DNA of 62,349 bases from a candidate division WOR-3 bacterium (GTDB lineage Bacteria > Hydrothermota > UBA3072): assembly GCA_023131835.1 (NCBI GenBank), contig JAGLZA010000033.1, positions 1 to 62,349 on the forward strand, in the 5' to 3' direction. A program made the translations under genes and the position numbers. A model generated the notes under the pieces. The model did no database searches. It worked only from the letters and a program-made list of their open reading frames with translations, and was not told the origin of the DNA. Shown here one piece after another: positions 17,801-62,338 of the stretch (within the stretch, counting starts at the first letter, position 1; every line of letters starts with the position of its first letter).

Positions 17801-17977
17801 TGCCATCACATAATTCTTAAACCAAAAATCCTCAAAGATAAGTCGTTGAATAGGGGCTAAATCCACACCTAATAAATCATATGCCGCTATACATGGATTC
17901 TGCAAATAGAAATTAATTAACTCACTACCCGCCTCTAAAACCTCTCTATATTTTCTCTTTTCAGTCTGATGACTCAT
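14807..17977 (-). CDS. terL: Terminase large subunit, interrupted by an intein
   Basis: Walker A GRGGGKT, Walker B LVLIDE, RNase H-like nuclease motifs IIGVDP, MDKGGGG and KDLYSA. Confidence 0.92.
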   Translation of the reverse strand: MSHQTEKRKYREVLEAGSELINFYLQNPCIAAYDLLGVDLAPIQRLIFEDFWFKNYVMAICGRGGGKTYLLGVLASLSCMLRPGYRVGLLAPVFRQSHVISDVISNTYDIFWTSDGLQTTAQNFYDSVEEGVTKIQSLESQNTILSKWKNPERACRSIKTTKGFELAGTVDHGILILNDKLDLIFKDLQDITKEDHVVIKKGFKYFGNDDSMPIFNEFKIDWRTKDCKIPRELTPDLAYWMGLMIGDGYVGINEVTGKYRVDFVNEDQDLLDSFERYLIEYFVDDPENIDRRNRKNKTWEIQYFRKKLAYYLLKCGFTVTTALDKKIPDVIKKASQECVKEFLIGLLDTDGHVYIQHYRNGAVHCEVALNTSSLQLAKEVQACFLNFGIMSNLGISKKAEHKCLIGRIKKSKCAEAYKVRITGLLNLNKFRDEIGFRCERKFDKLNIYLKSVEGSKTATDGVPYTAMAVKGLLTVCKDYFISISTGILDIGKLIRSCNRTHIVTVKKIKYSIELAEKYNILTEDYYKLKKIIDLDLSFVKMVESKYFFAPTIDVEVENESCYWSNGMISHNSKMIFAEVEKLYAQSSILREACDKPPTRGSDVCYLRFKSVGGMTPSYIEALPLGADGSKIRGSRFYLVLIDEFAQMPPKIIDTVLMPMGATSLAPMERVRRLEQKTHLISLGLASEDDFEQESVNKMIMTSSGFYKFNHMWKRMKDHWLQEDLAEKEGIEGQYAVWQVPYWDLPEGFLDQNNVDEAKRVMSSSEFRMEYEAEMVSDSEGFFKASLIESCSIDSGFTIEMRGDPKAQYIIGVDPNQGGRASCGIVILRIGTVNKIVNVLELRTQTTQQLTQIIQNLCDKLNVIRIFMDKGGGGKAVCDLLEEGYNGKTPIIDRTNDDHRHLSGSHILELIYFNPAWIADANFTVKSMLEDKKLLFPEPPIGSTLDIEAASYTTVTTLKSQMLNIIVTQTSTGILHFDTPQKGQKKDLYSALLLAAYGARVVEKEMEGEGDPVLFNSSGYVRPHNIQGATFDLITSQGGNVARKSVIHAAVLKKKFK
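16265..17689 (-). mobile_element. Intein (475 aa) with LAGLIDADG homing endonuclease in TerL
   Basis: Removing it restores APVFRQ|SKMIF. Ser1, block B TVDH, LAGLIDADG-like MGLMIGDG and IGLLDTDG, C-terminal ISHN followed by Ser+1. Confidence 0.9.
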
Positions 17978-24188: not shown

Positions 24189-25187
24189 CTACATCATTGC
24201 GGCTAAAAGAGCCCCCTTCGCTGTTGCTCTTAGAGGATCTTCTGCTCTCATTACTTTACCTATCTCTATCGGAAAATCAGTAGTTTTGAGAGCTTCATTA
24301 AACATCTGTACAAATCCTTTTGCCAGTGTTAAACCACCGGCTAACACTATTGGCATAGGCTCTCTAAATAAAGGTAATTCCTTTTTTCTTACCTTTAATT
24401 CATGTGCAATAGTTTTAATGGTATAGTTAAGAACAGATCGATAATAAACTGAAACAGCCTTCATAATTATTGTTGAAGGACTGTAAAGATCTGTTCCGGC
24501 TTCTTTTTCTGTCTGTACAAGGCTAGGAGAAATATCTAAAGCTTTCCCAACAGCCTCATCAACATAATCCCCTGCTTTTTGTAAAGAAAATTGAAGTATA
24601 GGGTCACCTTCATGTATAATTGCCATATTACAAAGACCTGCACCATATGTAACAATTCCCCCAGTTAACCCAGAATCAATTAATTCTGACAAGGCTACGG
24701 CAAAAGCTTCATTTATTGGTGTCGTTTCAAATCCCATCTGTTTTAAATATAACCCCAACATTTCTTTATGATAAATTATATCAAAATTTCCATCAATAGG
24801 TGCTGACGGAATAGAAAAAACACATTTATCCCCTTCCTTTCCTTCACCAATTAATGACTTTATAATAAGTTTTAATATTGGCAAAGATGCTTTTTCTTTG
24901 GGAGAAATTACTCCTTTTACCATAGGTCTTTCTACGACATCGTTTCTTTCGATCGCTATATCCAAAGAATCTTGTCCTATTATAACGAAAGACCCATCTT
25001 CATCTTCGATATAATTTACTTTTCTCTTGTCCAAAGACATCTTAATACTGCTCTTATTCACTTTAGTCTTTGGTTTAATCTTGTAAAAACAATCACGTTG
25101 ATTTTTAAATATTGAATCACCACCATCTTCAGATATTCCTGTGATCAACATATTTGTTCCCAAATCTAATCCGACAAATTTACTCAT
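24189..25187 (-). CDS. Actin-family ATPase, volactin-like
   Basis: GLDLGT (phosphate 1), RPMVKGVI, INEAFA, YGAG (phosphate 2), AGD, LAGG, ATAKGAL. Confidence 0.85.
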   Translation of the reverse strand: MSKFVGLDLGTNMLITGISEDGGDSIFKNQRDCFYKIKPKTKVNKSSIKMSLDKRKVNYIEDEDGSFVIIGQDSLDIAIERNDVVERPMVKGVISPKEKASLPILKLIIKSLIGEGKEGDKCVFSIPSAPIDGNFDIIYHKEMLGLYLKQMGFETTPINEAFAVALSELIDSGLTGGIVTYGAGLCNMAIIHEGDPILQFSLQKAGDYVDEAVGKALDISPSLVQTEKEAGTDLYSPSTIIMKAVSVYYRSVLNYTIKTIAHELKVRKKELPLFREPMPIVLAGGLTLAKGFVQMFNEALKTTDFPIEIGKVMRAEDPLRATAKGALLAAMM

Positions 25188-25818: not shown

Positions 25819-26403
25819 TTAACCTTTTGACTTTTGTATCTTATCGACTAATCCATATTTCACTGCCTCTTCTGCCGTCAAAAAATGATCTCTTTCCATA
25901 TCTTTCTTGACCTTCACAAGTTTTTGTCCTGTTAACTGTACATAATGCCTAGCCATTTTCTCATAAGTATCCTCAATATGTCTATAATTCCCACGCATAT
26001 CTCCAGCCTTTCCTGTAACTCCACCTGAAAGTTCATGTATCATTATATTAGTATTTGGCAAAATAGATCGTTTACCTTTTGTACCGGCTGCTAATAATAA
26101 GGAAGCCGCACTAATACACCTACCAAACCCCATCGTAGCCACATCTGGCTTCACATAATTAATCGTATCAAAGATTGCATACATTGCATCAATCTCTCCT
26201 CCCTGAGAGTTTATATACATATTAATATCTACCTCATTATCATTTGCCTCTAAAAATAACAATTGTGCTACTATAGAATCCGCTAAATTTTGGTCAATCA
26301 CACCACGAATGAATACGATTCTATCACGTAAAAGTCGTGAGTAAAGATCATACACACGTTCCTGATCTCCTGGTCCTTTTTCAATTACATATGGTACTGA
26401 CAT
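25819..26403 (-). CDS. clpP: ATP-dependent Clp protease proteolytic subunit
   Basis: YDLYSRLLRDRIVFI, AQLLFLE, YINSQGG; catalytic S (CISAAS), H (MIHE) and D (ERDHF). Confidence 0.95.
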   Translation of the reverse strand: MSVPYVIEKGPGDQERVYDLYSRLLRDRIVFIRGVIDQNLADSIVAQLLFLEANDNEVDINMYINSQGGEIDAMYAIFDTINYVKPDVATMGFGRCISAASLLLAAGTKGKRSILPNTNIMIHELSGGVTGKAGDMRGNYRHIEDTYEKMARHYVQLTGQKLVKVKKDMERDHFLTAEEAVKYGLVDKIQKSKG

Positions 26404-26478: not shown

Positions 26479-26506
26479 AATATAAGCATTAAATTTCATT
26501 TGTCAA
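26479..26506 (-). promoter_or_regulatory. Sigma70-like promoter upstream of clpP
   Basis: TTGACA-16 bp-TATATT, with spacer ending TAATGCT as in three other copies. Confidence 0.65.
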
Positions 26507-26521
26507 GCAACAATTTAATTT

Positions 26522-27815: not shown

Positions 27816-27947
27816 TTATCTCCATAATAATAGTAATGTTATTATACATCCAAACAATATAACAAACAATATAGATGTTGGAATAACATATTCTTTATCT
27901 TTCTCAATATATTTATTTATTAAATATTTTAAATTAAGTATTTTCAT
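27816..27947 (-). CDS. Small membrane peptide (43 aa)
   Basis: Manual translation MKILNLKYLINKYIEKDKEYVIPTSILFVILFGCIITLLLLWR fills the gap. Confidence 0.45.
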   Translation of the reverse strand: MKILNLKYLINKYIEKDKEYVIPTSILFVILFGCIITLLLLWR

Positions 27948-28701
27948 AAAATATATTTCTATTAGTTAAAATTATTGGTCCTTCATTAGTAATTGCGATT
28001 GTATGTTCAAAATGAGCTGCCATATCACCATTTTTAGTTAACACAGTCCAACCATCACTTCCCGTAATTGTTTCTGCGTTTCCAGCAACAACCATTGGTT
28101 CTATGGCTATTACCATTCCATTTTTTAATAAATAACCTTCTCCTTTATTACCAAAGTTATATACTGGAGGTTCTTCATGTAAATTTTTACCGATTCCATG
28201 TCCAGTAAAATTTTTAACTACATTAAAACCTTCTTTTTCTGCACACTGTTGAATAGTATAGGAAATATCACCTATTGTATTTCCTGAATGGCTTTGCTGT
28301 ATTGCAAGTGTTAGACATTCATTAGTAATTTTTATAAGTTTTTTATGTTTGTTTGATATTTTTCCAACAGGAATAGTTAATGCTGAATCTCCATACCATC
28401 CATTGTATAAAATACCAAAATCTATACTTAAAATATCCCCTTCTTTTAATGGTTTATCAGATGGAAATCCATGTACTACTTGTTCATTAACTGACGCACA
28501 TATAGAATATGGAAATCCCCTATAACCTTTAAATCCTGGTATAGCTCCCTTTTCGAAGGTCAATGTCTCTGCTAAACTATTTAAATAGTTGGTTGTAATA
28601 CCTGGTTTTACTTCTTTTTCCAAACAGGCTAAAACATACGCCACAATAGAGCAGCTTTTCTTTATTTCAAGTATATTTTGTATTCCATGTAAAATAATCA
28701 T
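27934..28701 (-). CDS. map: Methionine aminopeptidase, type I
   Basis: CASVNEQVVHG, SIDFG, YGDSA, GHGIG...HEEP, AIEPM, AHFEHT. Confidence 0.95.
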   Translation of the reverse strand: MIILHGIQNILEIKKSCSIVAYVLACLEKEVKPGITTNYLNSLAETLTFEKGAIPGFKGYRGFPYSICASVNEQVVHGFPSDKPLKEGDILSIDFGILYNGWYGDSALTIPVGKISNKHKKLIKITNECLTLAIQQSHSGNTIGDISYTIQQCAEKEGFNVVKNFTGHGIGKNLHEEPPVYNFGNKGEGYLLKNGMVIAIEPMVVAGNAETITGSDGWTVLTKNGDMAAHFEHTIAITNEGPIILTNRNIFYENT

Positions 28702-43522: not shown

Positions 43523-44062
43523 CTATAATTTTTCTATAATAAATGGAGACCGTACTCCTGCAGAAAACTCAGCTGCAGCTTCTAATGCTTTGGTTATTCT
43601 TTCTTTCGGTTTCATTTTAAAACTGTTTAAACTATGTAGTGCACCCATTGCTATATCTGCACCACAACCAACGGCTTCGTAATTAAGTGTTGGTTTAGCT
43701 ACTTGTAAATCACTTTCTACTTCATATAAATTTCCTTTATAACCAACTAAGAAAAATCCGATACTTATTTTGTTATCAGAAACTTTAGCATATTTTTTCT
43801 TTTCTAACATTTTTGATACAGCATCAATAAAATCTGTACACATATATTCATAGTCATCTTTTTTTCTTGGTTGTTCTGGAATTTTTAACGAATATTGAAG
43901 TAATTGACCGAGTCTAAAAGACGAAGTGAATCCAAAAAGCATTTCTCCGTTTTTGAATACCTTACTATCAGCTCTTGTCCGTATCTTTAATCCACCAACT
44001 CCAGCAGAATCTCCACCCATCCAAACTTTGTCATTTTCTACCCAACCAACTATACATGTCAT
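43523..44062 (-). CDS. HslV / proteasome-beta-like Ntn hydrolase
   Basis: M-TCIVG (N-terminal Thr nucleophile), GDS, SKVF, AVGCG...AMGAL. Confidence 0.8.
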   Translation of the reverse strand: MTCIVGWVENDKVWMGGDSAGVGGLKIRTRADSKVFKNGEMLFGFTSSFRLGQLLQYSLKIPEQPRKKDDYEYMCTDFIDAVSKMLEKKKYAKVSDNKISIGFFLVGYKGNLYEVESDLQVAKPTLNYEAVGCGADIAMGALHSLNSFKMKPKERITKALEAAAEFSAGVRSPFIIEKL

Positions 44063-45251: not shown

Positions 45252-45368
45252 ATTATAATCATTAAATCCCACTTGTCAAGAGATAAACTGACTTTTTTTT
45301 CATTTTTTTTTATTTATTATGGGAACTGTTTACTTAAACAATAATAAGCACTAAATCCCATTTGTCAA
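45252..45368 (-). promoter_or_regulatory. Two tandem sigma70-like leftward promoters
   Basis: TTGACA-16-TATAAT (45252-45279) and TTGACA-16-TATTAT (45341-45368) with near-identical spacers. Confidence 0.7.
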
Positions 45369-45412
45369 ATTTTATTATTACCAATTTACTAAACTATTTT
45401 TTAGGTGACTAT

Positions 45413-45454
45413 TATCGGATTATTGATATCGGGTTATTGATATCGGGTTATTAG
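45413..45454. repeat. Three tandem 14-bp repeats (TATCGGRTTATTGA)
   Basis: Direct reading. Confidence 0.85.
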
Positions 45455-45691
45455 ACTATATGGATGGGGATATTGTACTATACGGATTATTATACTACAA
45501 TTATATATGTATTATTATACTACTACATCGTGGTCATAACCTTTAAATCAACCCAAATTTATAGTGTGTGGGTACCTATATATGATATAGAGACGTAATT
45601 GCGTCTCTAACAATTATAGGGCCCCCTTCCTTTAACTTTTGAGACTATGCTTTTGTCTCAAACAGTGTTGTGAAGGATAAGCTCTTTGTCT

Positions 45692-45767
45692 CCTCCGATA
45701 AAGTGACGGACGGGTTTATTGGAGGCTTAACTCGAATTACCTCTCATTCCCGCCAATGATGTGATTT
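45692..45767 (+). ncRNA. Repeated structured leader element, copy 1 of 5
   Basis: Hairpin with CGGACGGG loop followed by a hairpin containing the invariant TCATTCCCGCCAATGATGTG. Confidence 0.65.
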
Positions 45768-45789
45768 AACATTTGAAAGGAGAATTACC

Positions 45790-45978
45790 ATGTCTTTCAA
45801 CTCCTACACAACAACAGAGAAATGTACGCGTCATGCTGACCACATAGTAGAAGGTTTTCCCAAATTTAAATGCCCAGAATGTGGATGGATATTCTGTGAA
45901 GAATGTTCAGAATCTTGGCATTGTGGACAGCATGGATGTATCGATTGCCCAAGTTGTGATTTCCATATTGACATATAA
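45790..45978 (+). CDS. Small Cys-rich (RING-like) zinc-finger protein
   Basis: CPECG..FCEEC...CPSC; AAGGAG SD. Confidence 0.7.
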   Translation: MSFNSYTTTEKCTRHADHIVEGFPKFKCPECGWIFCEECSESWHCGQHGCIDCPSCDFHIDI

Positions 45979-45990
45979 TTCTTTTATTTC

Positions 45991-46064
45991 TTCTGGTAGA
46001 ATAACGGATGGGTCTATCAGAAATTAACTCGAATCACCTCTCATTCCCGCCAATGATGTGATTC
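45991..46064 (+). ncRNA. Repeated structured leader element, copy 2 of 5
   Basis: Different stem sequence with the same fold; loop CGGATGGG. Confidence 0.65.
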
Positions 46065-46085
46065 ATTTGAAAGGAGGAAAATAAA

Positions 46086-46313
46086 ACGAACCTTTACACA
46101 CTTACAAGTAACATAGGTAATCACAGTGATGGTAAATACGATTTTGTAGCAGAACAATGGTTAGATGTTATTGAGATGGCTGTAAAATTTGAAGAAGACT
46201 TTAACGAACATAAGGCTTTTAATCCTGACTACACTATCAAACTGGAACTATCTTCATATAATGCTAATGTAGTTCCAATCAAACCAGGTTTTATTGACAT
46301 AAGAAAAGGCTAA
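46086..46313 (+). CDS. 75-aa hypothetical protein with apparent ACG start
   Basis: AGGAGG SD 8 nt upstream of ACG; open frame to TAA 46313. Confidence 0.5.
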   Translation, partial: TNLYTLTSNIGNHSDGKYDFVAEQWLDVIEMAVKFEEDFNEHKAFNPDYTIKLELSSYNANVVPIKPGFIDIRKG

Positions 46314-46325
46314 AGGGAGGGTAAC

Positions 46326-46502
46326 ATGGAATTAATTATTGAAATTAAAACAACCAATGTCGCAGTGGAAGAAGTACCAGAAATCCTTGAACAGATTAAG
46401 ATTTCCTTTGGTAAAGGATATGTTAGGGGTGGTGGATGGGATGACAAAAAGGGTAAAGAATATTCTTTTAACACCCTATTTGTGAAAGAAGAAGGTGTTT
46501 AA
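46326..46502 (+). CDS. Small hypothetical protein (58 aa)
   Basis: GGGAGG SD; MELIIEIKTTNVAVEEVPEILEQI... Confidence 0.7.
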   Translation: MELIIEIKTTNVAVEEVPEILEQIKISFGKGYVRGGGWDDKKGKEYSFNTLFVKEEGV

Positions 46503-46594
46503 TTTTTGAACCTGTCTTTGGTATATTCAAAGACAGACTTGAGAAATTAATCTATATTTATTTATTTAAAATTATAAACTAAAGGAGAATAATT

Positions 46595-46777
46595 ATGGCC
46601 AAAAAAGGAGCATCATCATCAATACTTACATTTATAAAGTATGAAATGTCTTTAATAACGGAAATTGATAAAAGGGAAGATAAAAAACAAAAGACCAGTA
46701 TTCAATTCAGAGAATCATGTATTTTTACTACCTGTTCTATTATTGTTTCCAAACGTAAACAACGTAAACGAAAGTAA
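46595..46777 (+). CDS. Small basic hypothetical protein
   Basis: AAGGAG SD. Confidence 0.45.
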   Translation: MAKKGASSSILTFIKYEMSLITEIDKREDKKQKTSIQFRESCIFTTCSIIVSKRKQRKRK

Positions 46778-46805
46778 AAATTTAGTGTCAGAGAAAGGAG
46801 GTATT

Positions 46806-47075
46806 ATGAAAAAGGATATGATTGAAATATGTGCATGGTGTAAGAGAATTAAAAAGGATAACGTTTATCAACCTTTCGATTTAGAAGCGGTTATAGAACT
46901 TGAAAAACGAACTGATATTACACTTACTCACGATCTCTGTCCGCTTTGTAAGAAGGAACAACAAAAAGAATTGGTAAAATTAGAACAAGAGTTAAAGAAA
47001 AAGAAATATATGAAAAAACTGAACCCGCCAATTAAAAAGGTTGATGAATTTAAAAGAAAGGAGGTGGAACCATGA
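46806..47075 (+). CDS. Zinc-binding protein (ICAWCKRI...THDLCP.C)
   Basis: Start moved to MKKDM (AGGAGGT SD). The motif resembles the Cys/His tail found on some bacterial signalling proteins. Confidence 0.7.
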   Translation: MKKDMIEICAWCKRIKKDNVYQPFDLEAVIELEKRTDITLTHDLCPLCKKEQQKELVKLEQELKKKKYMKKLNPPIKKVDEFKRKEVEP

Positions 47076-47296
47076 CAACAAGATTTAAAACATATGCTGT
47101 AATAAAAGGTTGGGTTTCAACTACGTTTGGGATAAGTGTTTCTTTGGTAGAGTGGTTTTTTAATTCGTTGTTAGGTTTAATCTTATTCATAATATTTATA
47201 CTATATCCATCGTTACTTATGATTGTGGTAATATTAATTATTTGGCTTATTACTAAAATACATCAAGCCTACAAGCGAAAAGAACACCATTCATAA
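47072..47296 (+). CDS. Small membrane protein
   Basis: AGGAGGT SD, hydrophobic. Confidence 0.65.
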   Translation: MTTRFKTYAVIKGWVSTTFGISVSLVEWFFNSLLGLILFIIFILYPSLLMIVVILIIWLITKIHQAYKRKEHHS

Positions 47297-47466
47297 ATAA
47301 AACAATCAAATTATAAACTGAAAGGAGGTGGTGCCATATGATATTAATTGGCCTTTGGGTAACCCTTTATCAATAGAATTGTGATACGATTTGAATCTAT
47401 CTAAAGTTCTAACTGTACAGGAGTTACATCATCTACAACTCATTTAATATTGGAGAAAGATTTATT

Positions 47467-47595
47467 TTGAATCACACAAAGGGTCATTCTAGTAAACAAA
47501 CTAATAGAAAGAAGTGTCAAGCAAATACCGTATGTTGTGCAGACATACCGAACTATGTAGTTAACCCATACTATGTAGCCAGGGACTTTCGCTAG
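47467..47595 (+). CDS. 42-aa peptide, paralog of 52699-52827
   Basis: GGAG SD, TTG start, same length as its paralog. Confidence 0.4.
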   Translation: MNHTKGHSSKQTNRKKCQANTVCCADIPNYVVNPYYVARDFR

Positions 47596-47670
47596 CGAGT
47601 TTTTAATGCTTCCAGGACTGCATTATAAATATACATTTTTTGATTTTCAACTTTATAAAAAGGAGGAAAT

Positions 47671-47871
47671 ATGAAATCAATTAATTATTGTTGTTCCCCA
47701 TTAAAATATGCAATAAAGGATGGAAATATAATCCATCGTGAAGACAAAAGTAAATTTTACATCTATGGTTACCCAAGTTTTGCCGATGATGGTGACGGAT
47801 ACACTGATGATATGACAGAAACCACGGAAATAACACATTGTCCCTTTTGTGGAAAAAAATTATGTAAATAA
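47671..47871 (+). CDS. Small protein with CPFCG motif
   Basis: AGGAGG SD. Confidence 0.7.
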   Translation: MKSINYCCSPLKYAIKDGNIIHREDKSKFYIYGYPSFADDGDGYTDDMTETTEITHCPFCGKKLCK

Positions 47872-47899
47872 GATTATTTAAGAATTAAAAGGAGGACTT

Positions 47900-48109
47900 A
47901 TGGAAACAATGCCCATTTTGACATCTGTATCACTTGAAGGTACAGTAACAGTTTCTATTGAACAAGTTGGATATACATATCAGATAGATGCTGGTTTTAT
48001 ACCGGAGATACAAAAACTTTTTCAATATAAACCTTGGCACGCTTTAAATTTATTAAAACAGAAAGCGTATCATGTGTCTAAAAACACATTACAACAAAAA
48101 AGGAGGTAA
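47900..48109 (+). CDS. Hypothetical protein
   Basis: AGGAGG SD. Confidence 0.7.
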   Translation: METMPILTSVSLEGTVTVSIEQVGYTYQIDAGFIPEIQKLFQYKPWHALNLLKQKAYHVSKNTLQQKRR

Positions 48110-48114
48110 TAATT

Positions 48115-48402
48115 ATGATGGCTAAGATTGTTCTTCATTTTGACGAAACGCTTAATTTGTTATCGATATTCTCTACACAACCTACATGCAATAATATCCA
48201 ATTTAGACGTAAAGGAGGAGATAACAAGGTAATAATAAAACACCCACGAGAAGTTCGTCTGGCAATGGAGTTATTATTTGGTAAACCCATTAAACGTGTT
48301 ACAAAAGGAGAATATAGTGGAACAGTTGGGAGTTTCTTCGAATTTGAGCTCCCAGTGTCAGAATGTGGCGAATTTCTTCTCATCAAAAAACCAACAATAT
48401 AA
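48115..48402 (+). CDS. Hypothetical protein
   Basis: AGGAGGT SD. Confidence 0.7.
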   Translation: MMAKIVLHFDETLNLLSIFSTQPTCNNIQFRRKGGDNKVIIKHPREVRLAMELLFGKPIKRVTKGEYSGTVGSFFEFELPVSECGEFLLIKKPTI

Positions 48403-48426
48403 CAAAAAAAAGGAGGTGAAAAAAAT

Positions 48427-48870
48427 ATGAACCCAAACCAAGATGGAAATACCCATATAAATATTTACTCTAGAGGAAAAACAGAATTAGGGCGGTTTTT
48501 AACTAATTTTGCTCATTCACCTATAATAACTGAAGACGGCCCTTTCACATCTATTGAAGGATATTGGTATTGGTTATCCAATAGAAATGAAAAAATGCGC
48601 AGCGTCTCTGGGGGAAATGCCAAAAAAGTTGGAAAAACCTATCCTAAAACAACACAATTATCAGAACAAGAATTTCAACGAAAAATAAGAGAAGCATGTT
48701 GGATTAAAATACATTCAAATAATGCTATGTTAAGATTATTCAAAATTTCTACATTACCATTTACCCATTATTATGTATTTGCTAATAATTTTGTAAAGGA
48801 TGCTGGGTATAAATGGATAATCGATATATGGGAATTGTTCCGAACTTTCATAAAAAATGATTATAAATAA
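48427..48870 (+). CDS. Divergent NADAR-like protein (candidate)
   Basis: FLTNFAHSP...FTSIEGYWYW...AKKVG resembles the NADAR LSNF...PTVEH pattern. Confidence 0.5.
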   Translation: MNPNQDGNTHINIYSRGKTELGRFLTNFAHSPIITEDGPFTSIEGYWYWLSNRNEKMRSVSGGNAKKVGKTYPKTTQLSEQEFQRKIREACWIKIHSNNAMLRLFKISTLPFTHYYVFANNFVKDAGYKWIIDIWELFRTFIKNDYK

Positions 48871-48885
48871 AGGAGGTAACAAGCT

Positions 48886-49380
48886 ATGATTATGAAATGT
48901 AATTCATGTGGTTATGAAGGAATACCTAATTTGGAAGAAACAGGTCCACATACAAAAGCTCTTTGCCAACAATGTGGAAAATACATCAAAATGGTTGGCA
49001 AAGATGAATTAGACAAAATTGTCACTCAATCCACGAACTCCAAACTCAAAGTATGGACAGCACAGTACCGATACTCAGGTAAAGACCGTATTGATATCAC
49101 AGTTAAGTCAGCTGTATATCCATGGAATGTTTTTGCACCTACGTGGGAAATGGTAAGGGAATATAAACGTTCCGGAAATGAAGAAGTATATATCGGACAA
49201 TATAAAGCTATCATTGACAAAGCGTTTGAATTACATACTCAACAACTATCAACTTTGCTTAACTCTGATAGAACAATCACACTGGTATGCTTTTGCCCTC
49301 TAGGAAACTTCTGTCATAGAGTTCTCTTAGCAAAACATTTTGAATCACTCGGAGCTACTTATTACGGGGAAAGGAGGTAA
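48886..49380 (+). CDS. Zinc ribbon fused to a DUF488-like domain
   Basis: CNSC...CQQC; FAPTW; ITLVCFC....CHR..LA. Confidence 0.7.
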   Translation: MIMKCNSCGYEGIPNLEETGPHTKALCQQCGKYIKMVGKDELDKIVTQSTNSKLKVWTAQYRYSGKDRIDITVKSAVYPWNVFAPTWEMVREYKRSGNEEVYIGQYKAIIDKAFELHTQQLSTLLNSDRTITLVCFCPLGNFCHRVLLAKHFESLGATYYGERR

Positions 49381-49385
49381 ACACA

Positions 49386-49616
49386 ATGGGTATTAAATGG
49401 TTAAATAATTCATTTATAGCCAGTGGGGACACACTAGTATTATCTGAATTAATGGTTCTTCAATCAGCTGCCGGACACTATATCGGGCATCTATGTAAAA
49501 CAATAAAGTGCAACTGTAAAGATGAACATCTTGGGTGCATAGAACCATATGATAGATTATCCGGATATATGTCTTACGAACAAGCAACCAAACAATTACA
49601 AACAATAAGAAATTAA
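49386..49616 (+). CDS. Hypothetical protein
   Basis: VLQSAAGHYIG...EPYDRLSGY; AGGAGGT SD. Confidence 0.7.
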   Translation: MGIKWLNNSFIASGDTLVLSELMVLQSAAGHYIGHLCKTIKCNCKDEHLGCIEPYDRLSGYMSYEQATKQLQTIRN

Positions 49617-49628
49617 GGAGATAAACCT

Positions 49629-49964
49629 ATGGACACTAATTTCTTACCAAACGTCAAATGCCCACACTGCAACGCCAACATCGTTGTTGCTATATCTGGA
49701 TTTGGAAGTGAGCTGAATACAAGAGAGAAATTCTGTAATAAATGTAACAGGTCCTTCTTTCTTCATATATTAGTTCAAACTACTTTGTATAAAGAAGTTA
49801 TGGACGGGGAAATAAATTCTTACAAAAGTAGGATAAGTTTCCTTAACAAACAACGAAAAAAGACATTAACGGAACAGCTTGTCAATTACGAAATAGCTCA
49901 AGAGATTAATCGGGAAGCATTAAAAATGGCAACAGAAATGAGACGTAAAATGGACTTAAATTAA
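49629..49964 (+). CDS. Zinc-ribbon plus coiled-coil protein
   Basis: CPHC...CNKC. Confidence 0.7.
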   Translation: MDTNFLPNVKCPHCNANIVVAISGFGSELNTREKFCNKCNRSFFLHILVQTTLYKEVMDGEINSYKSRISFLNKQRKKTLTEQLVNYEIAQEINREALKMATEMRRKMDLN

Positions 49965-49976
49965 GGAGGTGATACT

Positions 49977-50432
49977 GTGGAATTCATTAATGAAGACATT
50001 ACAAATATAACTTTCGGTTTTGTATGTCATCAAGTCAATTGTCAAGGAGTTATGGGTGCTGGAGTTGCTTTGGCCATAAGAAAGAAATGGCCAGTTGCAT
50101 ATGCTGAATATAAACAAGCTTATACAAACGGTGCTCTCATATTAGGAAACATCATATTTGCTAAAATCCAAGCTGATCTATATGTAGTACATATATGTGG
50201 ACAAGACAGATATGGTCATATCGGTATATATACTAATTACGAAGCACTACACAAGGCAATTCATTCCCTTAGTGAAATGAGAAGAAAAGTAAGCAAGGAT
50301 ATAGGAGTAGTATTTCCTGTTTACTTTCCAAATGGAATGGGGTGCAGATTAGCCGGTGGTGACTGGAATGTTGTCATAAAAATCATTGAGAAATATATTC
50401 CTGATGCCAAAATCGTTAATTATACACATTAG
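49977..50432 (+). CDS. Macrodomain protein (ADP-ribose processing)
   Basis: EDIT, HQVNCQGVMGAGVA, GMGCRLAGGDW. Confidence 0.9.
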   Translation: MEFINEDITNITFGFVCHQVNCQGVMGAGVALAIRKKWPVAYAEYKQAYTNGALILGNIIFAKIQADLYVVHICGQDRYGHIGIYTNYEALHKAIHSLSEMRRKVSKDIGVVFPVYFPNGMGCRLAGGDWNVVIKIIEKYIPDAKIVNYTH

Positions 50433-50448
50433 GAAGAGGATAATAAAA

Positions 50449-50706
50449 ATGATAACACCAAAATCAATCCGGAAACAATGTAAACGTAAACAACCTAAAC
50501 GTATAATATCACGTTATTGTTATGTTAAATCAGGTGAACTAAGTGGTGACTTGTGTTTTATATGTCACAGTTTTATGGTAATGAATAAAACTAAGCACAA
50601 GTCAAAAAGGTATAATGGAAAACATGGATGGACGGTATATTGTCAAACTTGTGGAAGAGAAGTGGAATTTGTTTCATATACAGAAGATAATTCTGCCTAT
50701 AGATAA
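50449..50706 (+). CDS. Basic zinc-ribbon protein
   Basis: Start moved to MITPK; CFIC...CQTC. Confidence 0.6.
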   Translation: MITPKSIRKQCKRKQPKRIISRYCYVKSGELSGDLCFICHSFMVMNKTKHKSKRYNGKHGWTVYCQTCGREVEFVSYTEDNSAYR

Positions 50707-50731
50707 ATTATTATAAAAAGGAGGTGATATT

Positions 50732-51151
50732 ATGAATAAGATAGTCGGCAATGAAATGATTAAACAATTTGTTCTAGCGGGAAAATCAACCTTTACCATT
50801 AGGAATATTAAAACTGGAAATCGTTTCACATATTATGTACAAGCCAATCACGACCGTGTAGTATGGTTTGTTAAAGGTCTGGTCGGACCTAATTACAAAT
50901 ATTTCGGAACAATATTCTACAATGGTTTTCGTCAAACAAAAAAATCCAGAATCACAAGCAATACCACAATTGTAAAAGCTTTCAGTTGGTTTTGGAAACA
51001 ACTACACTTAGGGAGTCCTTTACCCGCTAAATTGGAAGTCTACCATGAGGGTATGTGTGGTCGTTGCGGCAGAAGATTAACTGTACCAGAATCGATTGAT
51101 GCTGGATATGGTCCAATATGTATTAAACTTATTAACGATGGACAAGTATAA
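50732..51151 (+). CDS. DUF6011-type zinc-finger protein
   Basis: CGRCGRRLTVPESIDAGYGPIC. Confidence 0.8.
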   Translation: MNKIVGNEMIKQFVLAGKSTFTIRNIKTGNRFTYYVQANHDRVVWFVKGLVGPNYKYFGTIFYNGFRQTKKSRITSNTTIVKAFSWFWKQLHLGSPLPAKLEVYHEGMCGRCGRRLTVPESIDAGYGPICIKLINDGQV

Positions 51152-51163
51152 AGAGGAGTTATT

Positions 51164-51442
51164 ATGGATTTTATGGCAAAAAGAAGAATTTATCTAATAA
51201 AGGAACTCACTAAATCTGTGTATCCTACAACACAAATAATTTCTGGTGATATAACAATCGAAAAATATATTACAAGTATCGCAGATTTCTTGGCGAATGA
51301 GATAATTGACAGACGTATGCCAGTAGAAACATTATCCTTATTTGCTGAACTTGGAATATTACAAGTCCGCCAAAACAAAAATGTAGGAATACCGGCCCCA
51401 TTTCCACCAGCACCCCTCCCCTTCTTGCCTAAAAGAGCCTAG
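51164..51442 (+). CDS. Hypothetical protein with Pro-rich tail
   Basis: GAGGAG SD. Confidence 0.65.
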   Translation: MDFMAKRRIYLIKELTKSVYPTTQIISGDITIEKYITSIADFLANEIIDRRMPVETLSLFAELGILQVRQNKNVGIPAPFPPAPLPFLPKRA

Positions 51443-51445
51443 ATG

Positions 51446-51512
51446 TATCAAATAATTTAGCGGACGGGCTTACTTAATAAACCACCTCTCATTCCCGCCA
51501 ATGATGTGATTT
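51446..51512 (+). ncRNA. Repeated structured leader element, copy 3 of 5
   Basis: CGGACGGG plus the invariant 20-mer. Confidence 0.6.
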
Positions 51513-51529
51513 GAAAAGGAAATAATATC

Positions 51530-52009
51530 ATGAATACAATATCAATATTTAAAGGTAAGTATAATTTTCTTAGCAACTTTTTCACATTAGAAGTACCAAT
51601 AGCATATAATGGTATATCTTATCCAACAGTTGAGCATTTCTATCAAGCCATGAAAAGTTTAGGCCCAACAGATCCAGGAGCCTTAAATCCAGTTGACCGT
51701 ATAATAATAGCAGGTGATTCAAGTCCCTTTATGGCAAGAAACTTTGGGCGCACTATACGGCTAAGGCCCGATTGGGAAAATGCTAAAATTTCAGTAATGA
51801 GACTCGGGCTAATATTAAAGTTTGCAGCTAATCCTGAACTCAAAACTCAATTACTGAGCACCTGGGAAAGTGTACTTGTAGAAGGAAATCATTGGCATGA
51901 TAATATATGGGGTAATTGCATGTGCCCAAAATGTGCCAATACAAAAGGTCAGAATCTTCTCGGATATCTTCTGATGGAGGTAAGAGAATTATTTAGGTTG
52001 ATAAAATAA
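51530..52009 (+). CDS. NADAR (YbiA/DUF1768) family protein
   Basis: FLSNF, YPTVEHFYQAMK, RPDW, KF..NPEL, LVEGN.W.D..WG, GQNLLG.LLM. Confidence 0.92.
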   Translation: MNTISIFKGKYNFLSNFFTLEVPIAYNGISYPTVEHFYQAMKSLGPTDPGALNPVDRIIIAGDSSPFMARNFGRTIRLRPDWENAKISVMRLGLILKFAANPELKTQLLSTWESVLVEGNHWHDNIWGNCMCPKCANTKGQNLLGYLLMEVRELFRLIK

Positions 52010-52031
52010 ATTATTAAAAAAAGGAGATAAT

Positions 52032-52226
52032 ATGAATCATCTACAAAAACATTATGAAAGTTTATCAACGGAACAGTTAAGAGTAGAACGTTCTGAAATC
52101 CAAAAAAAGATTGAAGAAAACAACGGACGACTAACCGCCCATAGTTCTGCCGATTTGGATGATAACCTGGATACACGTGATATTATTGACAGAATTCTGG
52201 CAATTCGTTATAGTGAAAGTATATAA
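52032..52226 (+). CDS. Hypothetical protein
   Basis: AAGGAG SD. Confidence 0.65.
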   Translation: MNHLQKHYESLSTEQLRVERSEIQKKIEENNGRLTAHSSADLDDNLDTRDIIDRILAIRYSESI

Positions 52227-52267
52227 TAAAGGTCCATAACTTAAACTAATAAGAAGGAGGTAATATT

Positions 52268-52666
52268 ATGGAATTTAAAGTAGTTATTGCTGGTGGAAGA
52301 GATTTTGGAAATGTTAGACTACGTGGAGAATTACAAGCAAGCAGGGATTTTATTACATTATATAATGCTATGGACAGATTGTTGATAGACCAACTTAAAG
52401 CAAATACAATAACAATCATTTCCGGCGGGGCCCAGGGCGCTGATTCATTGGGAGAACGTTATGCACGAATGAGAAATTTCGGTCTTATTAGAATAAAGGC
52501 AGATTGGAACAAGTATAAGAAAAGTGCGGGTTTCATCAGAAACAAAGAAATGTTGCACCTTGCTGATGGTGTCGTATGCTTTTGGGATGAAAAATCCACG
52601 GGTACCGGACATATGGTTAAGATAACAAAAGGTTCGTTGATACCTTTAAAACTTATACTTTACTAA
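52268..52666 (+). CDS. SLOG-family (DUF2493/YspA-like) protein
   Basis: IAGGRDF, ISGGAQGAD, ADW...SAGFIRN.EM, FWD..STGT.HM. Confidence 0.85.
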   Translation: MEFKVVIAGGRDFGNVRLRGELQASRDFITLYNAMDRLLIDQLKANTITIISGGAQGADSLGERYARMRNFGLIRIKADWNKYKKSAGFIRNKEMLHLADGVVCFWDEKSTGTGHMVKITKGSLIPLKLILY

Positions 52667-52698
52667 CCTAACACATATTAAAAGGAGATGATAAAATT

Positions 52699-52827
52699 TT
52701 GAATTATACAAAGGGTAATTTTAACAAACAAACTAGCAAGAAAACAAGTCAATTAGATAACGTATGGTATGTAAACATTTCACATTATGTAAACAACTTA
52801 AACTGTGAAGCCAAGAACTTTCATTAA
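52699..52827 (+). CDS. 42-aa peptide, paralog of 47467-47595
   Basis: AAGGAG SD, TTG start. Confidence 0.4.
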   Translation: MNYTKGNFNKQTSKKTSQLDNVWYVNISHYVNNLNCEAKNFH

Positions 52828-52898
52828 CGAGTTTTTGATACATCTAGGACCATAAATAGTTTATTCATTTTTCATAATTACACGAATATAATCTCTAA

Positions 52899-52953
52899 CA
52901 ACGGACGGGTTTATTTAACGAACTACCTCTCATTCCCGCCAATGATGTGGTTC
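52899..52953 (+). ncRNA. Repeated structured leader element, copy 4 of 5
   Basis: CGGACGGG plus the invariant 20-mer; closing stem GAACTAC/GTGGTTC. Confidence 0.6.
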
Positions 52954-52969
52954 ATTTGAAAGGTATACC

Positions 52970-53263
52970 ATGAACACAATACAAAGCACAGCCGTAAACA
53001 ACAATTCACCAATATCAGTGAAAAGAGTTAATGTTGAAAAACTGGTCTATAATCCATCCCATGTCAAAAACAATTGTATCATTTCTGAACAATGTATTAT
53101 TACCACACAACAAGAAACGTTTTCTGCCTGGGGTGTAACTGCTGAAGTATGTATAATCCATCTCATAAAAGGGGAAAGTCTCTGTTGCACATACATCTCA
53201 AAAAATGGTAAATTGGATGTTGTTCAAATAAATGGGTGTAATTCAACCAGGGTATCAAAGTGA
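52970..53263 (+). CDS. Hypothetical protein (possible OB-fold)
   Basis: Follows leader copy 4; FSAWGVTAE...LIKG is SSB-like. Confidence 0.55.
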   Translation: MNTIQSTAVNNNSPISVKRVNVEKLVYNPSHVKNNCIISEQCIITTQQETFSAWGVTAEVCIIHLIKGESLCCTYISKNGKLDVVQINGCNSTRVSK

Positions 53264-53291
53264 ATGTTATAAATAGATACAACTTAATAGA

Positions 53292-53344
53292 AAGCGGACG
53301 GACTCAACTTGAACTACCTTTCATTCCCGCCAATGATGTGGTTT
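53292..53344 (+). ncRNA. Repeated structured leader element, copy 5 of 5
   Basis: CGGACGGA plus the invariant 20-mer. Confidence 0.55.
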
Positions 53345-53380
53345 AACAAATTGATTTGTTATTAATAAAAAGGAGGTAAT

Positions 53381-53611
53381 ATGTACATAATAATAAGTGA
53401 TAACAATAAGTCGAAACAATGTATAGTCACCAATACAATTAAAATAAAGGATATCGAAAAAGACTGTATTAGGGTAATCTTAACACAAAAAGATTTTGAT
53501 ACTGGCCAAATAATAGACTTGGTTCTAGATCCAAGTGAGGCCGTAATCCTTGTAAAGAACCTGACAAAGACGATTATGGAAATTGCACTTCACAACATTT
53601 GCCCAAAATAA
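53381..53611 (+). CDS. Hypothetical protein
   Basis: AGGAGGT SD. Confidence 0.7.
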   Translation: MYIIISDNNKSKQCIVTNTIKIKDIEKDCIRVILTQKDFDTGQIIDLVLDPSEAVILVKNLTKTIMEIALHNICPK

Positions 53612-53635
53612 ATCTTAATGAAAGGAGGTGATACT

Positions 53636-53821
53636 ATGATTACTGAAAGAAGAATTATATCAGAAAAAATTCTATTTGGTCCAGCAAAAGAAGATGAATT
53701 AACAATAGCAAATGAAATTATCGCTGGAACAAGACCAGTAAACTGGAATGTGGCAGGCCACCCAGACCATGATGTATGGGTGTCGATAGTTGAATTGAAA
53801 CAAAAAAAAGGACAAACATAA
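53636..53821 (+). CDS. Hypothetical protein resembling an internal segment of the SSB
   Basis: Start moved to MITER. ILFG...EIIAGTRPVNW...HPD...W matches SSB LVFG...EIQAGRRPVNW...HPD...W. Confidence 0.7.
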   Translation: MITERRIISEKILFGPAKEDELTIANEIIAGTRPVNWNVAGHPDHDVWVSIVELKQKKGQT

Positions 53822-53853
53822 AAAAAAGTGGTTTTAAAGGAGATAAGATTATT

Positions 53854-54267
53854 ATGGGAATGGAAATGGTGTTACAATGCAAGTGTGAGTGTAATACGTT
53901 ACCTATAGACGGAGGTATGACGGAAACATTGTTTCCTAAAACAGAAGAGAAACTTAAAGGTGATGAAAAATATGTCAAATATTTGGGGTATCTTACACGC
54001 TACACCCATATGACAAAATTTGTATCTATTATGGACTTTCTATTCTGTGAAATATTTCCAATTCCTTGGAGGAATAGATGTTTCCTATTTTATAAAGATT
54101 TGGGACCACAACTTTATGAAGATAAGGAGTTTACTTCATCTCTTTATGATGAAATCTTATGTAACTTAGTACTTAATCTTTGTATTTTTGTCAGAGAAAA
54201 CAAATTAGGTCCTCGATGGGAAATGGTATTATACTACACCAACCTTATAATAAAGAAAAAGGAGTAA
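53854..54267 (+). CDS. Hypothetical protein
   Basis: Packed ORF. Confidence 0.65.
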   Translation: MGMEMVLQCKCECNTLPIDGGMTETLFPKTEEKLKGDEKYVKYLGYLTRYTHMTKFVSIMDFLFCEIFPIPWRNRCFLFYKDLGPQLYEDKEFTSSLYDEILCNLVLNLCIFVRENKLGPRWEMVLYYTNLIIKKKE

Positions 54268-54271
54268 TACA

Positions 54272-54475
54272 ATGCTTTGTCCAACTATAGTATTTAAACA
54301 CTCAAACGCCTTTGTACAAAAAAACGTAACAACCATCAATTGCTCATCATGTGGTTATCCAATAAATCCGGATAAATCATTTTTTAGATGTCTTAAATGT
54401 GGTATAACAGAAGAAGATAGAAACTATTATGATGAAGCATATATGGTTCCGGAAAAAGAACTTTGCTTTGAATAA
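54272..54475 (+). CDS. Small zinc-ribbon protein
   Basis: CSSCG...CLKCG. Confidence 0.65.
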   Translation: MLCPTIVFKHSNAFVQKNVTTINCSSCGYPINPDKSFFRCLKCGITEEDRNYYDEAYMVPEKELCFE

Positions 54476-54652
54476 TCTTGTAAAAGAAAGGAGGTGATTA
54501 AATAACAAATAAAAAATTTGAAGGTCTCCCACCGGTCCACTACTTACTACCGTTCGACAGGTCTCACTCTCAAGGTCTCCCCCTCACTTTACGATTATAT
54601 CATTTAACACATTAACCCAAACATACATCAATTTTTTAAAAGGAGGTAAATC

Positions 54653-59766: not shown

Positions 59767-59810
59767 GATGGGAAAGACACTTATTATTGGTGTCTTTCCC
59801 ATTTTTTTTT
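59767..59810 (+). terminator. Intrinsic terminator after ssb
   Basis: ATGGGAAAGACAC / GTGTCTTTCCCAT stem followed by a T run. Confidence 0.85.
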
Positions 59811-59826
59811 ATTTAAAGGAATAATT

Positions 59827-60009
59827 ATGCTATATATATACTGTATTTTTTTTACTAGTATACTATATACAACTATATTTATTTATTACAAAATTAATTT
59901 TATCAAGGGCTGGATTTTTGGCTTATTGGAACTAGACCTGTCTTTTAACTCCCGAAAATTTTTTAGAAGGAAAAAAAATGAAAAAATATTTAAAAAAATT
60001 GATTCTTAA
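59827..60009 (+). CDS. Small membrane protein
   Basis: Start moved to MLYIY (AAGGA SD). Confidence 0.4.
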   Translation: MLYIYCIFFTSILYTTIFIYYKINFIKGWIFGLLELDLSFNSRKFFRRKKNEKIFKKIDS

Positions 60010-60357: not shown

Positions 60358-60443
60358 CTGAATTATTTTACCAAAGACTGGGTTTTTGGCTTATTAGAAC
60401 CGGCTTTATTTTTTAATTCCTGTAAAATTGGAGGGGCATAATT

Positions 60444-62240: not shown

Positions 62241-62338
62241 TGTAGTATATTACGCTATCTTATTAAACAATATAAGCATTAATTTAAGTTTGTCAAGTCT
62301 TTTTTTAAATAAACTGCATTTTTTTGTAGTATATTACG
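62241..62338 (-). promoter_or_regulatory. Sigma70-like promoter flanked by two identical 14-bp operator-like sites
   Basis: TTGACA-16-TATATT at 62269-62296; TGTAGTATATTACG at 62241-62254 and 62325-62338. Confidence 0.65.

Follow-up and report, generated by a model that had tools for sequence, protein, structure and literature searches.

The window analysed here is a stretch of 62,349 nucleotides, the entire contig JAGLZA010000033.1 (contig C257 in our set) of GenBank assembly GCA_023131835.1; judged from its sequence, it belongs to a huge T4-like myovirus from a widespread clade. Genes are oriented leftward between ~45.3 kb and position 1, and beyond 45.8 kb all of them run rightward. Besides many genes without known function, the leftward block contains those for an intein-bearing terminase, a capsid protein, ClpP, an actin-like protein and an endolysin. 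The rightward block holds the element that is the subject of this work: a linear box, CGGAYGGR, followed by a hairpin with the loop CCCGCC, found in five copies between 45692 and 53344. The element was noticed in an earlier reading of the letters alone, made without database searches (the sequence-only reading), and we followed up the claims made there.

The core of the element is a 20-mer that had been described as invariant and present five times. A pattern scan of the window confirmed five exact copies (0 mismatches), all on the plus strand, at 45744, 46041, 51489, 52930 and 53321. No additional match was present in the window at up to 3 mismatches, and none of 100 shuffled sequences contained any match; the repeat is real, far beyond chance. 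In the whole 3.9 Mb assembly (537 contigs), both a pattern search allowing up to 2 mismatches and an nhmmer profile recovered the same five copies only, the next-best nhmmer hits being unrelated host repeats on contig C330. The box CGGAYGGR, previously placed 18-29 nt upstream of each copy, occurs at five sites in the 62 kb window with both strands counted (45707, 46005, 51461, 52902 and 53295) and nowhere else in it, and the gaps from box to 20-mer are 29, 28, 20, 20 and 18 nt for copies 1 to 5. All five copies are indeed intergenic and lie 5-24 nt upstream of a Shine-Dalgarno sequence. Within DNA of 32% G+C, the box and the loop form GC-rich islands.

An alignment of the copies revealed an unbroken common block of ~34 nt, consisting of a 7-bp outer stem, a 3x1 internal loop, the inner stem TCATT/AATGA and the loop CCCGCC (hairpin 2). 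Inner stem, loop and 3′ flank are invariant across the five copies, and the outer-stem arms read GAAYYAC and GTGRTTY. In four copies, a further common stretch 3′ of the block runs into the Shine-Dalgarno sequence. Copies 1 and 2 contain another hairpin upstream (hairpin 1), which presents the box. Hairpin 1 of copy 1 (45692-45725) is the minimum-energy fold and has an 11-bp stem and a 12-nt loop with the box CGGACGGG (45707-45714); it is followed by hairpin 2 (45734-45767), in which the outer stem GAATTAC/GTGATTT encloses the 3x1 internal loop, TCATT/AATGA and CCCGCC. In copy 2, a 10-bp stem with a 12-nt loop (45991-46022) carries the box CGGATGGG (46005-46012), and hairpin 2 (46031-46064, outer stem GAATCAC/GTGATTC) is followed by the Shine-Dalgarno sequence AAAGGAGG. 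Copy 3 (51461-51512) combines the box CGGACGGG (51461-51468), a 10-nt linker and hairpin 2 (51479-51512), the outer stem of which contains a C.A mismatch. The same box sequence CGGACGGG is found in copy 4 (52902-52953, box at 52902-52909), where hairpin 2 (52920-52953) has the outer stem GAACTAC/GTGGTTC. Copy 5 (53295-53344) starts with the box CGGACGGA (53295-53302), and its hairpin 2 (53311-53344) shows the outer stem GAACTAC/GTGGTTT and an internal loop CTT. An additional small hairpin precedes the Shine-Dalgarno sequence of copy 5. Like all other copies, these last three are on the plus strand.

Behind four of the five copies, an ATG follows after 21-41 nt. The respective genes, all on the plus strand, are a 62-aa zinc-ribbon-like open reading frame (ORF; ATG at 45790) behind copy 1, a NADAR gene (51530-52009, ATG at 51530) behind copy 3, and two ORFs of no known function behind copies 4 (97 aa, ATG at 52970) and 5 (76 aa, ATG at 53381). 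The Shine-Dalgarno sequence AAAGGAGG of copy 2 is strong, but no ATG, GTG or TTG follows at the usual spacing: a protein-like frame is open from 46071 and its first ATG is at 46176. The frame behind copy 2 (46065-46180) could thus start with an unusual codon or have lost its start by decay, or the assembly could be wrong here. Based on Pfam and the annotation of the window ORFs, only one of the five genes directly behind the copies, the NADAR gene, has a counter-defence-type domain, and the other four belong to no known family. In the proposal that the element co-regulates early and counter-defence genes, the label “counter-defence” is thus unproven, a domain of this type being present behind copy 3 only.

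The stretch around copy 3 (48427-52666, plus strand) encodes further domains with links to nucleotide signalling and to reversing ADP-ribosylation, and it is a candidate counter-defence island. It includes a NADAR-like protein (phrog_652, 48427-48870), a DUF488 protein (48886-49380), a macro domain protein (49977-50432) and a SLOG/YspA protein (52268-52666), all on the plus strand. A 155-nt paralogous repeat, present at 47464-47618 and 52696-52850 with 72% identity, holds a 42-aa ORF with a TTG start and a conserved 3′ flank. Its second copy adjoins copy 4 of the element on the 5′ side. The gene downstream of the first repeat copy lacks the element, so copy 4 looks like an insertion between the 155-nt repeat and the Shine-Dalgarno sequence.

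Coding or translational roles were considered and set aside. A conserved peptide across the element was rejected, as the ORFs that span copies 2 and 3 on the minus strand do not use the same frame. The mini-ORF ATG-ATG-TGA within the 20-mer has no Shine-Dalgarno sequence ahead of it. Sequestration of the Shine-Dalgarno sequence by a CCUCU stretch would involve at most 4 bp.

Next to the sequence of the copies, we considered their fold. Hairpin 2 is the minimum-energy RNA fold in four of the five copies, whereas the minimum-energy fold of copy 3 pairs the box with the loop instead; hairpin 1 was returned only for copies 1 and 2. Counted over the five copies, 34 of the 35 cells of the outer stem of hairpin 2 pair. 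One of its pairs is U-A in two copies, C-G in two others and the C.A mismatch in copy 3, a second one switches between C-G and U-G, and a third occurs as G-C, G-U and A-U; one or two pairs show double changes. The claim that the outer stem covaries is supported as far as the changes preserve pairing, which the mismatch of copy 3 does not. Hairpin 1 had been described as having a completely different stem sequence in copies 1 and 2. This is not the case: of its 10 pairs, five are identical, three are altered on both sides and two are altered on one side through G-U. All 20 cells pair and no pair is broken, and we therefore regard the two stems as homologous and compensated.

The changes also bear on which strand folds. 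In copy 1, hairpin 1 reaches -14.8 kcal/mol on the plus strand compared with -8.9 kcal/mol on the minus strand, and in general it is more stable on the plus strand by 4-6 kcal/mol. Hairpin 2 folds better on the plus strand in copies 1, 4 and 5. For hairpin 1 and for hairpin 2 of these same three copies, the G-U pairs exist on the sense strand only. With DNA parameters, hairpin 2 has an energy of only -1.0 to -4.8 kcal/mol; as RNA, it has -4.0 to -9.3 kcal/mol. Together, the compensatory and G-U changes support two RNA-type hairpins. With regard to the sense strand, the strand-specific folded element postulated from the letters alone is in agreement with these changes, with the stability of hairpin 1 and with hairpin 2 in three of the five copies.

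The same sequence-only reading had suggested that box and loop form a kissing loop or pseudoknot. The box, as GG(A)YGGG, is able to pair with all six loop bases in four of the five copies, and the C-to-U change of copy 2 keeps a G-U pair; the box of copy 5 ends in A, by which one of the six proposed pairs is lost. Five of the six loop-box pairs are constant and the sixth changes on one side only, so there is no loop-box covariation, because both partners are almost invariant. To judge how readily such a match arises, the window was scanned for complements of the whole loop, with G-U pairs and one bulged base allowed. This yielded 22 sites outside the elements, which corresponds to a chance of ~1.6% within 45 nt; the value obtained for random sequence of equal composition is identical. 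The box-loop pairing is suggestive, neither proven nor refuted: it is possible in four copies and not readily expected by chance, but it shows no covariation, and the searches for homologues brought none.

We then asked how the copies relate to the transcription signals of the window. Four near-consensus sigma-70 promoters (TTGACA, 16-18 nt, TATAAT-like) were found at 26479-26507, 45252-45280, 45341-45369 and 62269-62297, all on the minus strand. They resemble each other beyond both hexamers, all of them point leftward, and they are probably the early promoters of the phage. No comparable sigma-70 promoter is present in any rightward spacer, and the promoter scan listed no sigma-70-type promoter inside any of the five copies. 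The label “early” for the genes behind the element was thus conjecture, given that the only consensus sigma-70 promoters point the opposite way. The best fit by eye within the element uses AATGAT as -10 region, with a -35 region that matches at 2-4 of 6 positions and falls on the least conserved part of the element. A conserved promoter upstream of each box was likewise rejected by eye, with -10-like hexamers at inconsistent distances. The only intrinsic terminator of the rightward block is a strong one at 59767-59803. No T-run follows either hairpin, and no hairpin of the element was listed as terminator-like.

A second family of spacer motifs, GTCTCCCC, occurs in five copies at 54575, 54944, 55072, 56739 and 58637, again on the plus strand only. 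It is located upstream of rightward-arm genes (spacers from 54.5 to 58.7 kb) and may represent a second promoter or operator class. A GTCTCCC at 54524 was also noted with this family, and tandem TTGG(C/T)TTCTTGGTC-like units often lie ahead of its members (55006-69, with a period of 12). In the divergent region between the two gene blocks, tandem iteron-like repeats of 14 nt are present 2.9 times (45413-45452). At the matching place of a related phage record, G020 (locus L210, ~9914-10005), a different 17-mer is repeated five times. The repeats of the divergent region may be a replication origin or a regulator-binding site.

Related strains offered a view of how the element behaves over time. 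Seven public sequencing runs, all labelled as cold seep metagenome, contain half or more of the words sampled from 45300-54300; two of the seven may be the source of the assembly, and runs X5-X9 contain 27-79% of these words. Contigs (not reads) of four runs were aligned at 80% likeness, which is a low threshold, and 15 joints were listed, with 13 more beyond those; several of the 15 may be a single event, and only some link two elements. In run X8, the last base of the hairpin of copy 3 (51512) is joined to 47900, that is, to another gene that has no element in the window. In run X7, 51512 is joined back to 51472, resulting in a 41-nt tandem repeat of the core. A joint from 51139 to 51476 (X6 and X8) skips a 92-aa gene together with the box; the positions 51472 and 51476 lie 7 and 3 nt before the hairpin of copy 3. 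Three genes and copy 3 are skipped by joints from 50431/50440 to 51525/51530 (X8 and X6), which place the NADAR gene directly after the macro gene. The joint from 52880 to 54447 (X7) starts 22 nt before the box of copy 4, and that from 51135 to 53362 (X8) ends 18 nt after the hairpin of copy 5. Hence, six of the 15 listed joints have an end within ~25 nt of an element, while elements make up ~3% of the stretch. The number and place of copies differ between strains. As far as these contigs go, the elements mark cassette borders, and the idea of a recombination anchor gains from strains whose contigs break and rejoin at element edges.

Outside these strains, the element was searched for in several directions. 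No Rfam family matched anywhere in the window at gathering scores, and of the six weak matches at E ≤ 10 on 45300-54000 none overlaps an element, in keeping with the earlier statement that no known riboswitch or ribozyme consensus is recognisable. The exact 20-mer gave no match in the viral contigs of IMG/VR. Three metagenome contigs and two genome contigs do contain it, all in DNA of 48-63% G+C without the flanking element; because of this GC-rich setting and the absent flanks, we consider these five matches to be due to chance. A scan of viral contigs with a 14-mer, which yielded at least 115 loci with one match each among those listed, was uninformative. The covariance-model search for homologues that the sequence-only reading had called for brought nothing credible: the best match was at E 0.35 over five related viral records and at E 0.2 over 36 kb of G020 together with the surroundings of NADAR homologues at 23 loci, and neither was accepted as a homologue. 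Among 271 other genomes of the phylum of the assembly, there were two single hits, each with two mismatches.

Two related records, G020 (175 kb) and G023 (189 kb), are syntenic with positions 5-29 kb of the window at 31-85% protein identity, but window positions 29-62 kb have almost nothing in common with them. Because this part is mostly not conserved in either record, we place the element in a hyperplastic accessory arm. Neither G020 nor G023 contains a comparable dispersed repeat of at least four copies, apart from a few low-complexity or local 13-mers, and no similar hairpin is found at the syntenic start of the G020 block. From these searches, the element appears so far to be confined to one lineage.

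Based on these observations, we tentatively favor an RNA hairpin leader that is read by a trans-acting factor and also serves as a recombination anchor; the RNA action, the factor and its role are what we infer. According to this proposal, the element would be a cis-acting RNA module in the 5′ leader or intergenic spacer of five expression units of the rightward variable arm. The invariant loop, inner stem and 3′ flank of the 34-nt hairpin would be what a sequence-specific trans-acting factor recognises, most likely an RNA-binding protein or endoribonuclease of the phage or of its host, while the outer stem would be kept only as a stem and the box CGGAYGGR would be part of the same site. Binding or cleavage would set the 5′ edge of each unit and thereby affect processing, stability or translation start of the next gene. 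As a fivefold repeat of ~40 nt in a phage that has a T4-type recombination apparatus, the element would also anchor gain, loss and shuffling of cassettes between strains. Changes affect both arms of a pair together while a single factor would read all copies, which is unlike the half-sites of a DNA-binding dimer, and so is the asymmetry of the 3x1 internal loop.

Several points weigh against this proposal. An RNA leader needs a promoter upstream of copy 1, and none is convincing there: the best candidate, TTTATA-17-TATGAT at 45558-45586, matches at 9 of 12 positions, and matches of this quality are not more frequent than in shuffled sequence (98 found versus 83 expected). The second spacer family GTCTCCCC is an obstacle too, as two promoter classes are simpler than two RNA elements. 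The distances from box to stem fall into two groups, 8-10 and 18-19 nt, which differ by about one DNA helical turn and would thus suit an activator acting at the DNA level. The covariation is drawn from only five related copies, and the shuffle controls are not significant, the observed score being reached in 89 of 500 shuffles in the test of hairpin 2 and loop-box pairing and in 62 of 500 for hairpin 1. Hairpin 1 is absent in copies 3-5, and the folding z-scores of the whole element are -1.85 and -2.19 for copies 1 and 2 but ~0 for copies 3-5. In copy 3, and to a slight degree in copy 2, hairpin 2 folds better on the minus strand. No candidate binding protein for the element was found among the annotated window ORFs. 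None of the runs that contain the stretch is on record as RNA; run X15, labelled as possibly RNA, was judged to be probably DNA and was covered as contigs only, which are silent on transcript ends. Finally, some strain contigs lack the element ahead of the NADAR gene and the 76-aa gene, so it is not needed for the expression of either.

Part of this evidence favors a promoter cassette, which we regard as the main alternative, somewhat less probable than the RNA leader. Here, the element would act at the DNA level as a phage-specific promoter, for example of a middle class, at which a phage factor redirects the host RNA polymerase, in analogy to the promoter-early stem-loops (PeSLs) of T4-type phages discussed below; the hairpins would be incidental or would insulate against upstream transcripts. 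Copy 1 stands at the very start of the rightward gene block, which needs promoters, while the four consensus sigma-70 promoters all point leftward and no rightward spacer has one. The plus-strand-only GTCTCCCC family fills the next 4 kb of spacers like a second promoter class, and the shift of box-core spacing by about one helical turn between copies fits as well. A cascade on the host polymerase is plausible: the related record G023 has T4-like replication genes and no annotated RNA polymerase among its long ORFs, and five related records show no Sigma70_r2 domain (see below). Conserved intergenic repeats of other viruses have turned out to be promoters, as reported for HF2 (PMC8707807). What a duplex does not explain are the pairing-preserving double changes and the sense-strand G-U pairs, which have no role in it. 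In addition, the element lacks a sigma-70 consensus, and its invariant part is one unbroken block of ~28 nt instead of two hexamers, with the would-be -35 region being the least conserved. Hairpin 1 of copy 1 lacks an upstream gene that it could insulate, and T-runs and listed terminator-like hairpins are missing. No phage sigma factor or activator was found among the window ORFs. If the hairpins act in RNA, they could also do so without any factor, and a self-contained switch or ribozyme, in which the box and CCCGCC form a kissing complex (copies 1 and 2) or a pseudoknot (copies 3-5) that gates translation, termination or self-cleavage, would make direct use of the box-loop complementarity, including the G-U pair of copy 2 and its low chance expectation. 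The minimum-energy fold of copy 3 uses exactly this pairing, and both partners are GC-rich islands, the box being exclusive to the elements. We nevertheless consider it improbable: five of six pairs never vary, copy 5 loses one, the spacing between box and loop ranges from 18 to 29 nt and only two of five copies present the box in a loop. The downstream genes are mutually unrelated, unlike those of a ligand-sensing switch, the elements match none of the known ribozyme or riboswitch families, not even at E ≤ 10, and nothing speaks for the ribozyme that had been among the suggestions.

The strain joints invite the thought that the element is selfish or recombinational, either a small mobile repeat or the target of some recombinase or nuclease, for which the position before a ribosome-binding site is a tolerated landing place. 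Copy number and place vary between strains, an element end is joined to the gene at 47900, the 41-nt core was found in tandem, and copy 4 looks like an insertion beside the 155-nt repeat. However, the five copies share their orientation and the class of distance to the Shine-Dalgarno sequence, no transposase, integrase or Y1/HUH nuclease was detected in the window (Pfam, 112 ORFs), and core sites of the attC type were not matched on direct reading, which makes this explanation decidedly doubtful. A mimic of a CRISPR repeat, that is, a solitary repeat unit or RNA anti-CRISPR that soaks up Cas proteins, would agree with the length and part-palindromic shape of the element and with its position among candidate counter-defence genes (NADAR, macro, DUF488 and SLOG). 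The 3′ flank CATTTGAAAG loosely resembles ATTGAAA-type ends of CRISPR repeats. Against this highly improbable reading, a covarying outer stem is not expected in such a mimic, no similar repeat exists in the rest of the assembly, and the 271 genomes of the phylum give only the two single hits with two mismatches, which is a weak test, as the true host may lie elsewhere. The hairpin promoters of phage N4 have a 5-7 bp stem and a 3-nt loop and are read by the virion RNA polymerase. A single-stranded DNA promoter of this type, extruded from the duplex and read by a phage polymerase, had also been proposed for the element. The 5-bp stem and the place at the head of a gene block would fit, but the loop has 6 nt, and the low energies with DNA parameters weaken the proposal. 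Moreover, the window revealed neither a giant nor a T7-like polymerase, and five related records showed no T7-type polymerase, the latter being a weak result, as the control genomes of the family gave no signal. We give this last reading hardly any credence.

For an RNA hairpin leader as well as for a promoter cassette, the closest parallels come from other phages. Each PeSL of a T4-type phage comprises a promoter and a stem-loop, which can lie between or over the -35 and -10 regions (PMC2839356), and PeSLs are defined as a class by a consensus sigma-70 early promoter plus a transcription-terminating stem-loop (PMC2839356, PMC4122927). Compared with PeSLs, the element is alike in being a short conserved composite stem-loop motif that is repeated in hyperplastic regions of a large T4-like myovirus, directly before small genes mostly of unknown function (here, four of five are without known family). 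Differences between close relatives map to PeSLs, as anchors of modular shuffling, and the strain joints suggest that the same may hold for the element. It differs in having neither a sigma-70 consensus nor a T-run, in an invariant part that is a hairpin, and in an additional G-rich box; in this phage, the consensus promoters make up a repeat family of their own on the opposite strand. Because the defining promoter feature fails, we do not file the element as a PeSL, although it appears PeSL-like in its role in genome plasticity. For the HF2 halovirus, two classes of conserved intergenic repeats are described as AT-rich archaeal promoters that are conserved genus-wide (PMC8707807). Two repeat classes upstream of genes are also found in the window, namely the element and GTCTCCCC, but the element is GC-rich at its center, folds, and is absent from relatives.

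With regard to processing, the irregular hairpins of the element, with an internal loop, in several related copies within gene spacers before ribosome-binding sites, are reminiscent of RNase III sites. In the early genes of phage T7 and the early mRNA of the Bacillus phage SP82, irregular internal-loop hairpins ahead of ribosome-binding sites mark off expression units and affect stability, and such substrates comprise about two helical turns. At 7 + 5 = 12 bp, the stem of the element is shorter than this norm, and its sequence invariance is much stricter. The nut site of phage lambda consists of the linear boxA and the boxB hairpin, which has a 5-bp stem and a purine-rich pentaloop and is accompanied by an N-type protein, whereas the put site of HK022 has two stem-loops; both types occur twice per genome just downstream of early promoters and are read in nascent RNA. 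Nut sites and the element both have a short linear box ahead of a small hairpin whose loop is invariant, and copies 1 and 2 have two hairpins like put. In contrast, the element is present five times, at ribosome-binding sites, has a C-rich 6-nt loop, CCCGCC, matches nothing in Rfam and belongs to a block with only one intrinsic terminator (59767-59803). No N-like protein was recognised among the annotated window ORFs, though such proteins are hard to detect. The attC sites of integrons are imperfect hairpins at the 3′ end of cassettes, conserved in structure but variable in sequence, with the core RYYYAAC/GTTRRRY. Imperfect hairpins with unpaired bases between gene cassettes, tied to their gain and loss, are a shared feature, but the R′′/R′ core is unmatched by the arms GAAYYAC/GTGRTTY, the 112 ORFs include no integrase, and the core of the element is invariant.

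A more far-reaching version of the RNA leader, which we consider rather unlikely, would be a new class of cis-regulatory phage RNA. In this portable leader, the loop would dock on the box through a kissing or pseudoknot contact, and a phage factor would read the folded site and thereby turn counter-defence genes and genes without known function on or off as one regulon. The module would at the same time be the junction at which cassettes are exchanged between strains, which would put it beside PeSLs and integron attC sites as their counterpart at the RNA level. In huge phages, fast-changing arms house most of the counter-defence genes and of the genes without known function, and the expression and reshuffling of such arms are poorly known outside the T4 model. 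The element is a concrete, testable handle on both, as it marks five expression units and is a place at which related strains differ in gene order. Should it act as RNA, portable regulatory cassettes would comprise not only promoters but also RNA operators; should it be a promoter, the large myoviruses of this widespread, uncultured clade would have a promoter class other than sigma-70. How important the element is in general is uncertain, because it is so far confined to one lineage.

The assignment to this clade follows from the capsid protein and the related records. A tblastn search of phage records with the capsid protein matched only Bacillus phage G, at 22% identity, whereas 965 relatives at E ≤ 1e-5 were obtained among 8000 candidates scored; the best 120 of these 965 are 82-91% identical, some of them on contigs of >300 kb. 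In IMG/VR, 278 related loci were found. A 512-aa protein of the window gave no match in phage records or viral contigs, and a megablast search of 45600-53400 against phage records was likewise without a match. The record G023 encodes a UvsX-like recombinase, a helicase, a primase, a clamp, a clamp loader, a DNA polymerase, a tail sheath and a baseplate wedge. Among the 44 ORFs of G023 that reach 330 aa or more, no RNA polymerase is annotated, and none of five related records contains a Sigma70_r2 domain. Because the replication genes are T4-like and the relatives, as incomplete records, show neither an RNA polymerase nor Sigma70_r2, the phage would be a T4-like one that relies on the host polymerase. 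CheckV rates the related records of 175-189 kb as 66-72% complete, and the 62-kb contig is probably a fragment of the phage genome.

The assembly itself comprises 3.9 Mb in 537 contigs, compared with 1.6-2.8 Mb in 19 other genomes of the same family, none of which matched the capsid protein. Its G+C content is 39%, that of the phage contig 32% and that of the other long contigs C157, C168 and C179 34%. The bin probably holds foreign contigs, and the assembly therefore does not name the host of the phage.

Among the genes of the leftward block, the large terminase (14807-17977, minus strand, 1056 aa) carries an intein with a LAGLIDADG endonuclease domain, and the terminases of G020 and G023 match over a similar length. 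The actin-like protein belongs to the Volactin family (E 1.5e-57), and the block also encodes ClpP, an M24 aminopeptidase and an HslV/proteasome-like peptidase (24189-25187, 25819-26403, 27934-28701 and 43523-44062, respectively, all on the minus strand). Near the opposite end of the window, a 65-nt direct repeat is located at 59897-59961 and 60365-60429, in spacers beyond the terminator at 59767-59803, and its two copies are 75% identical.

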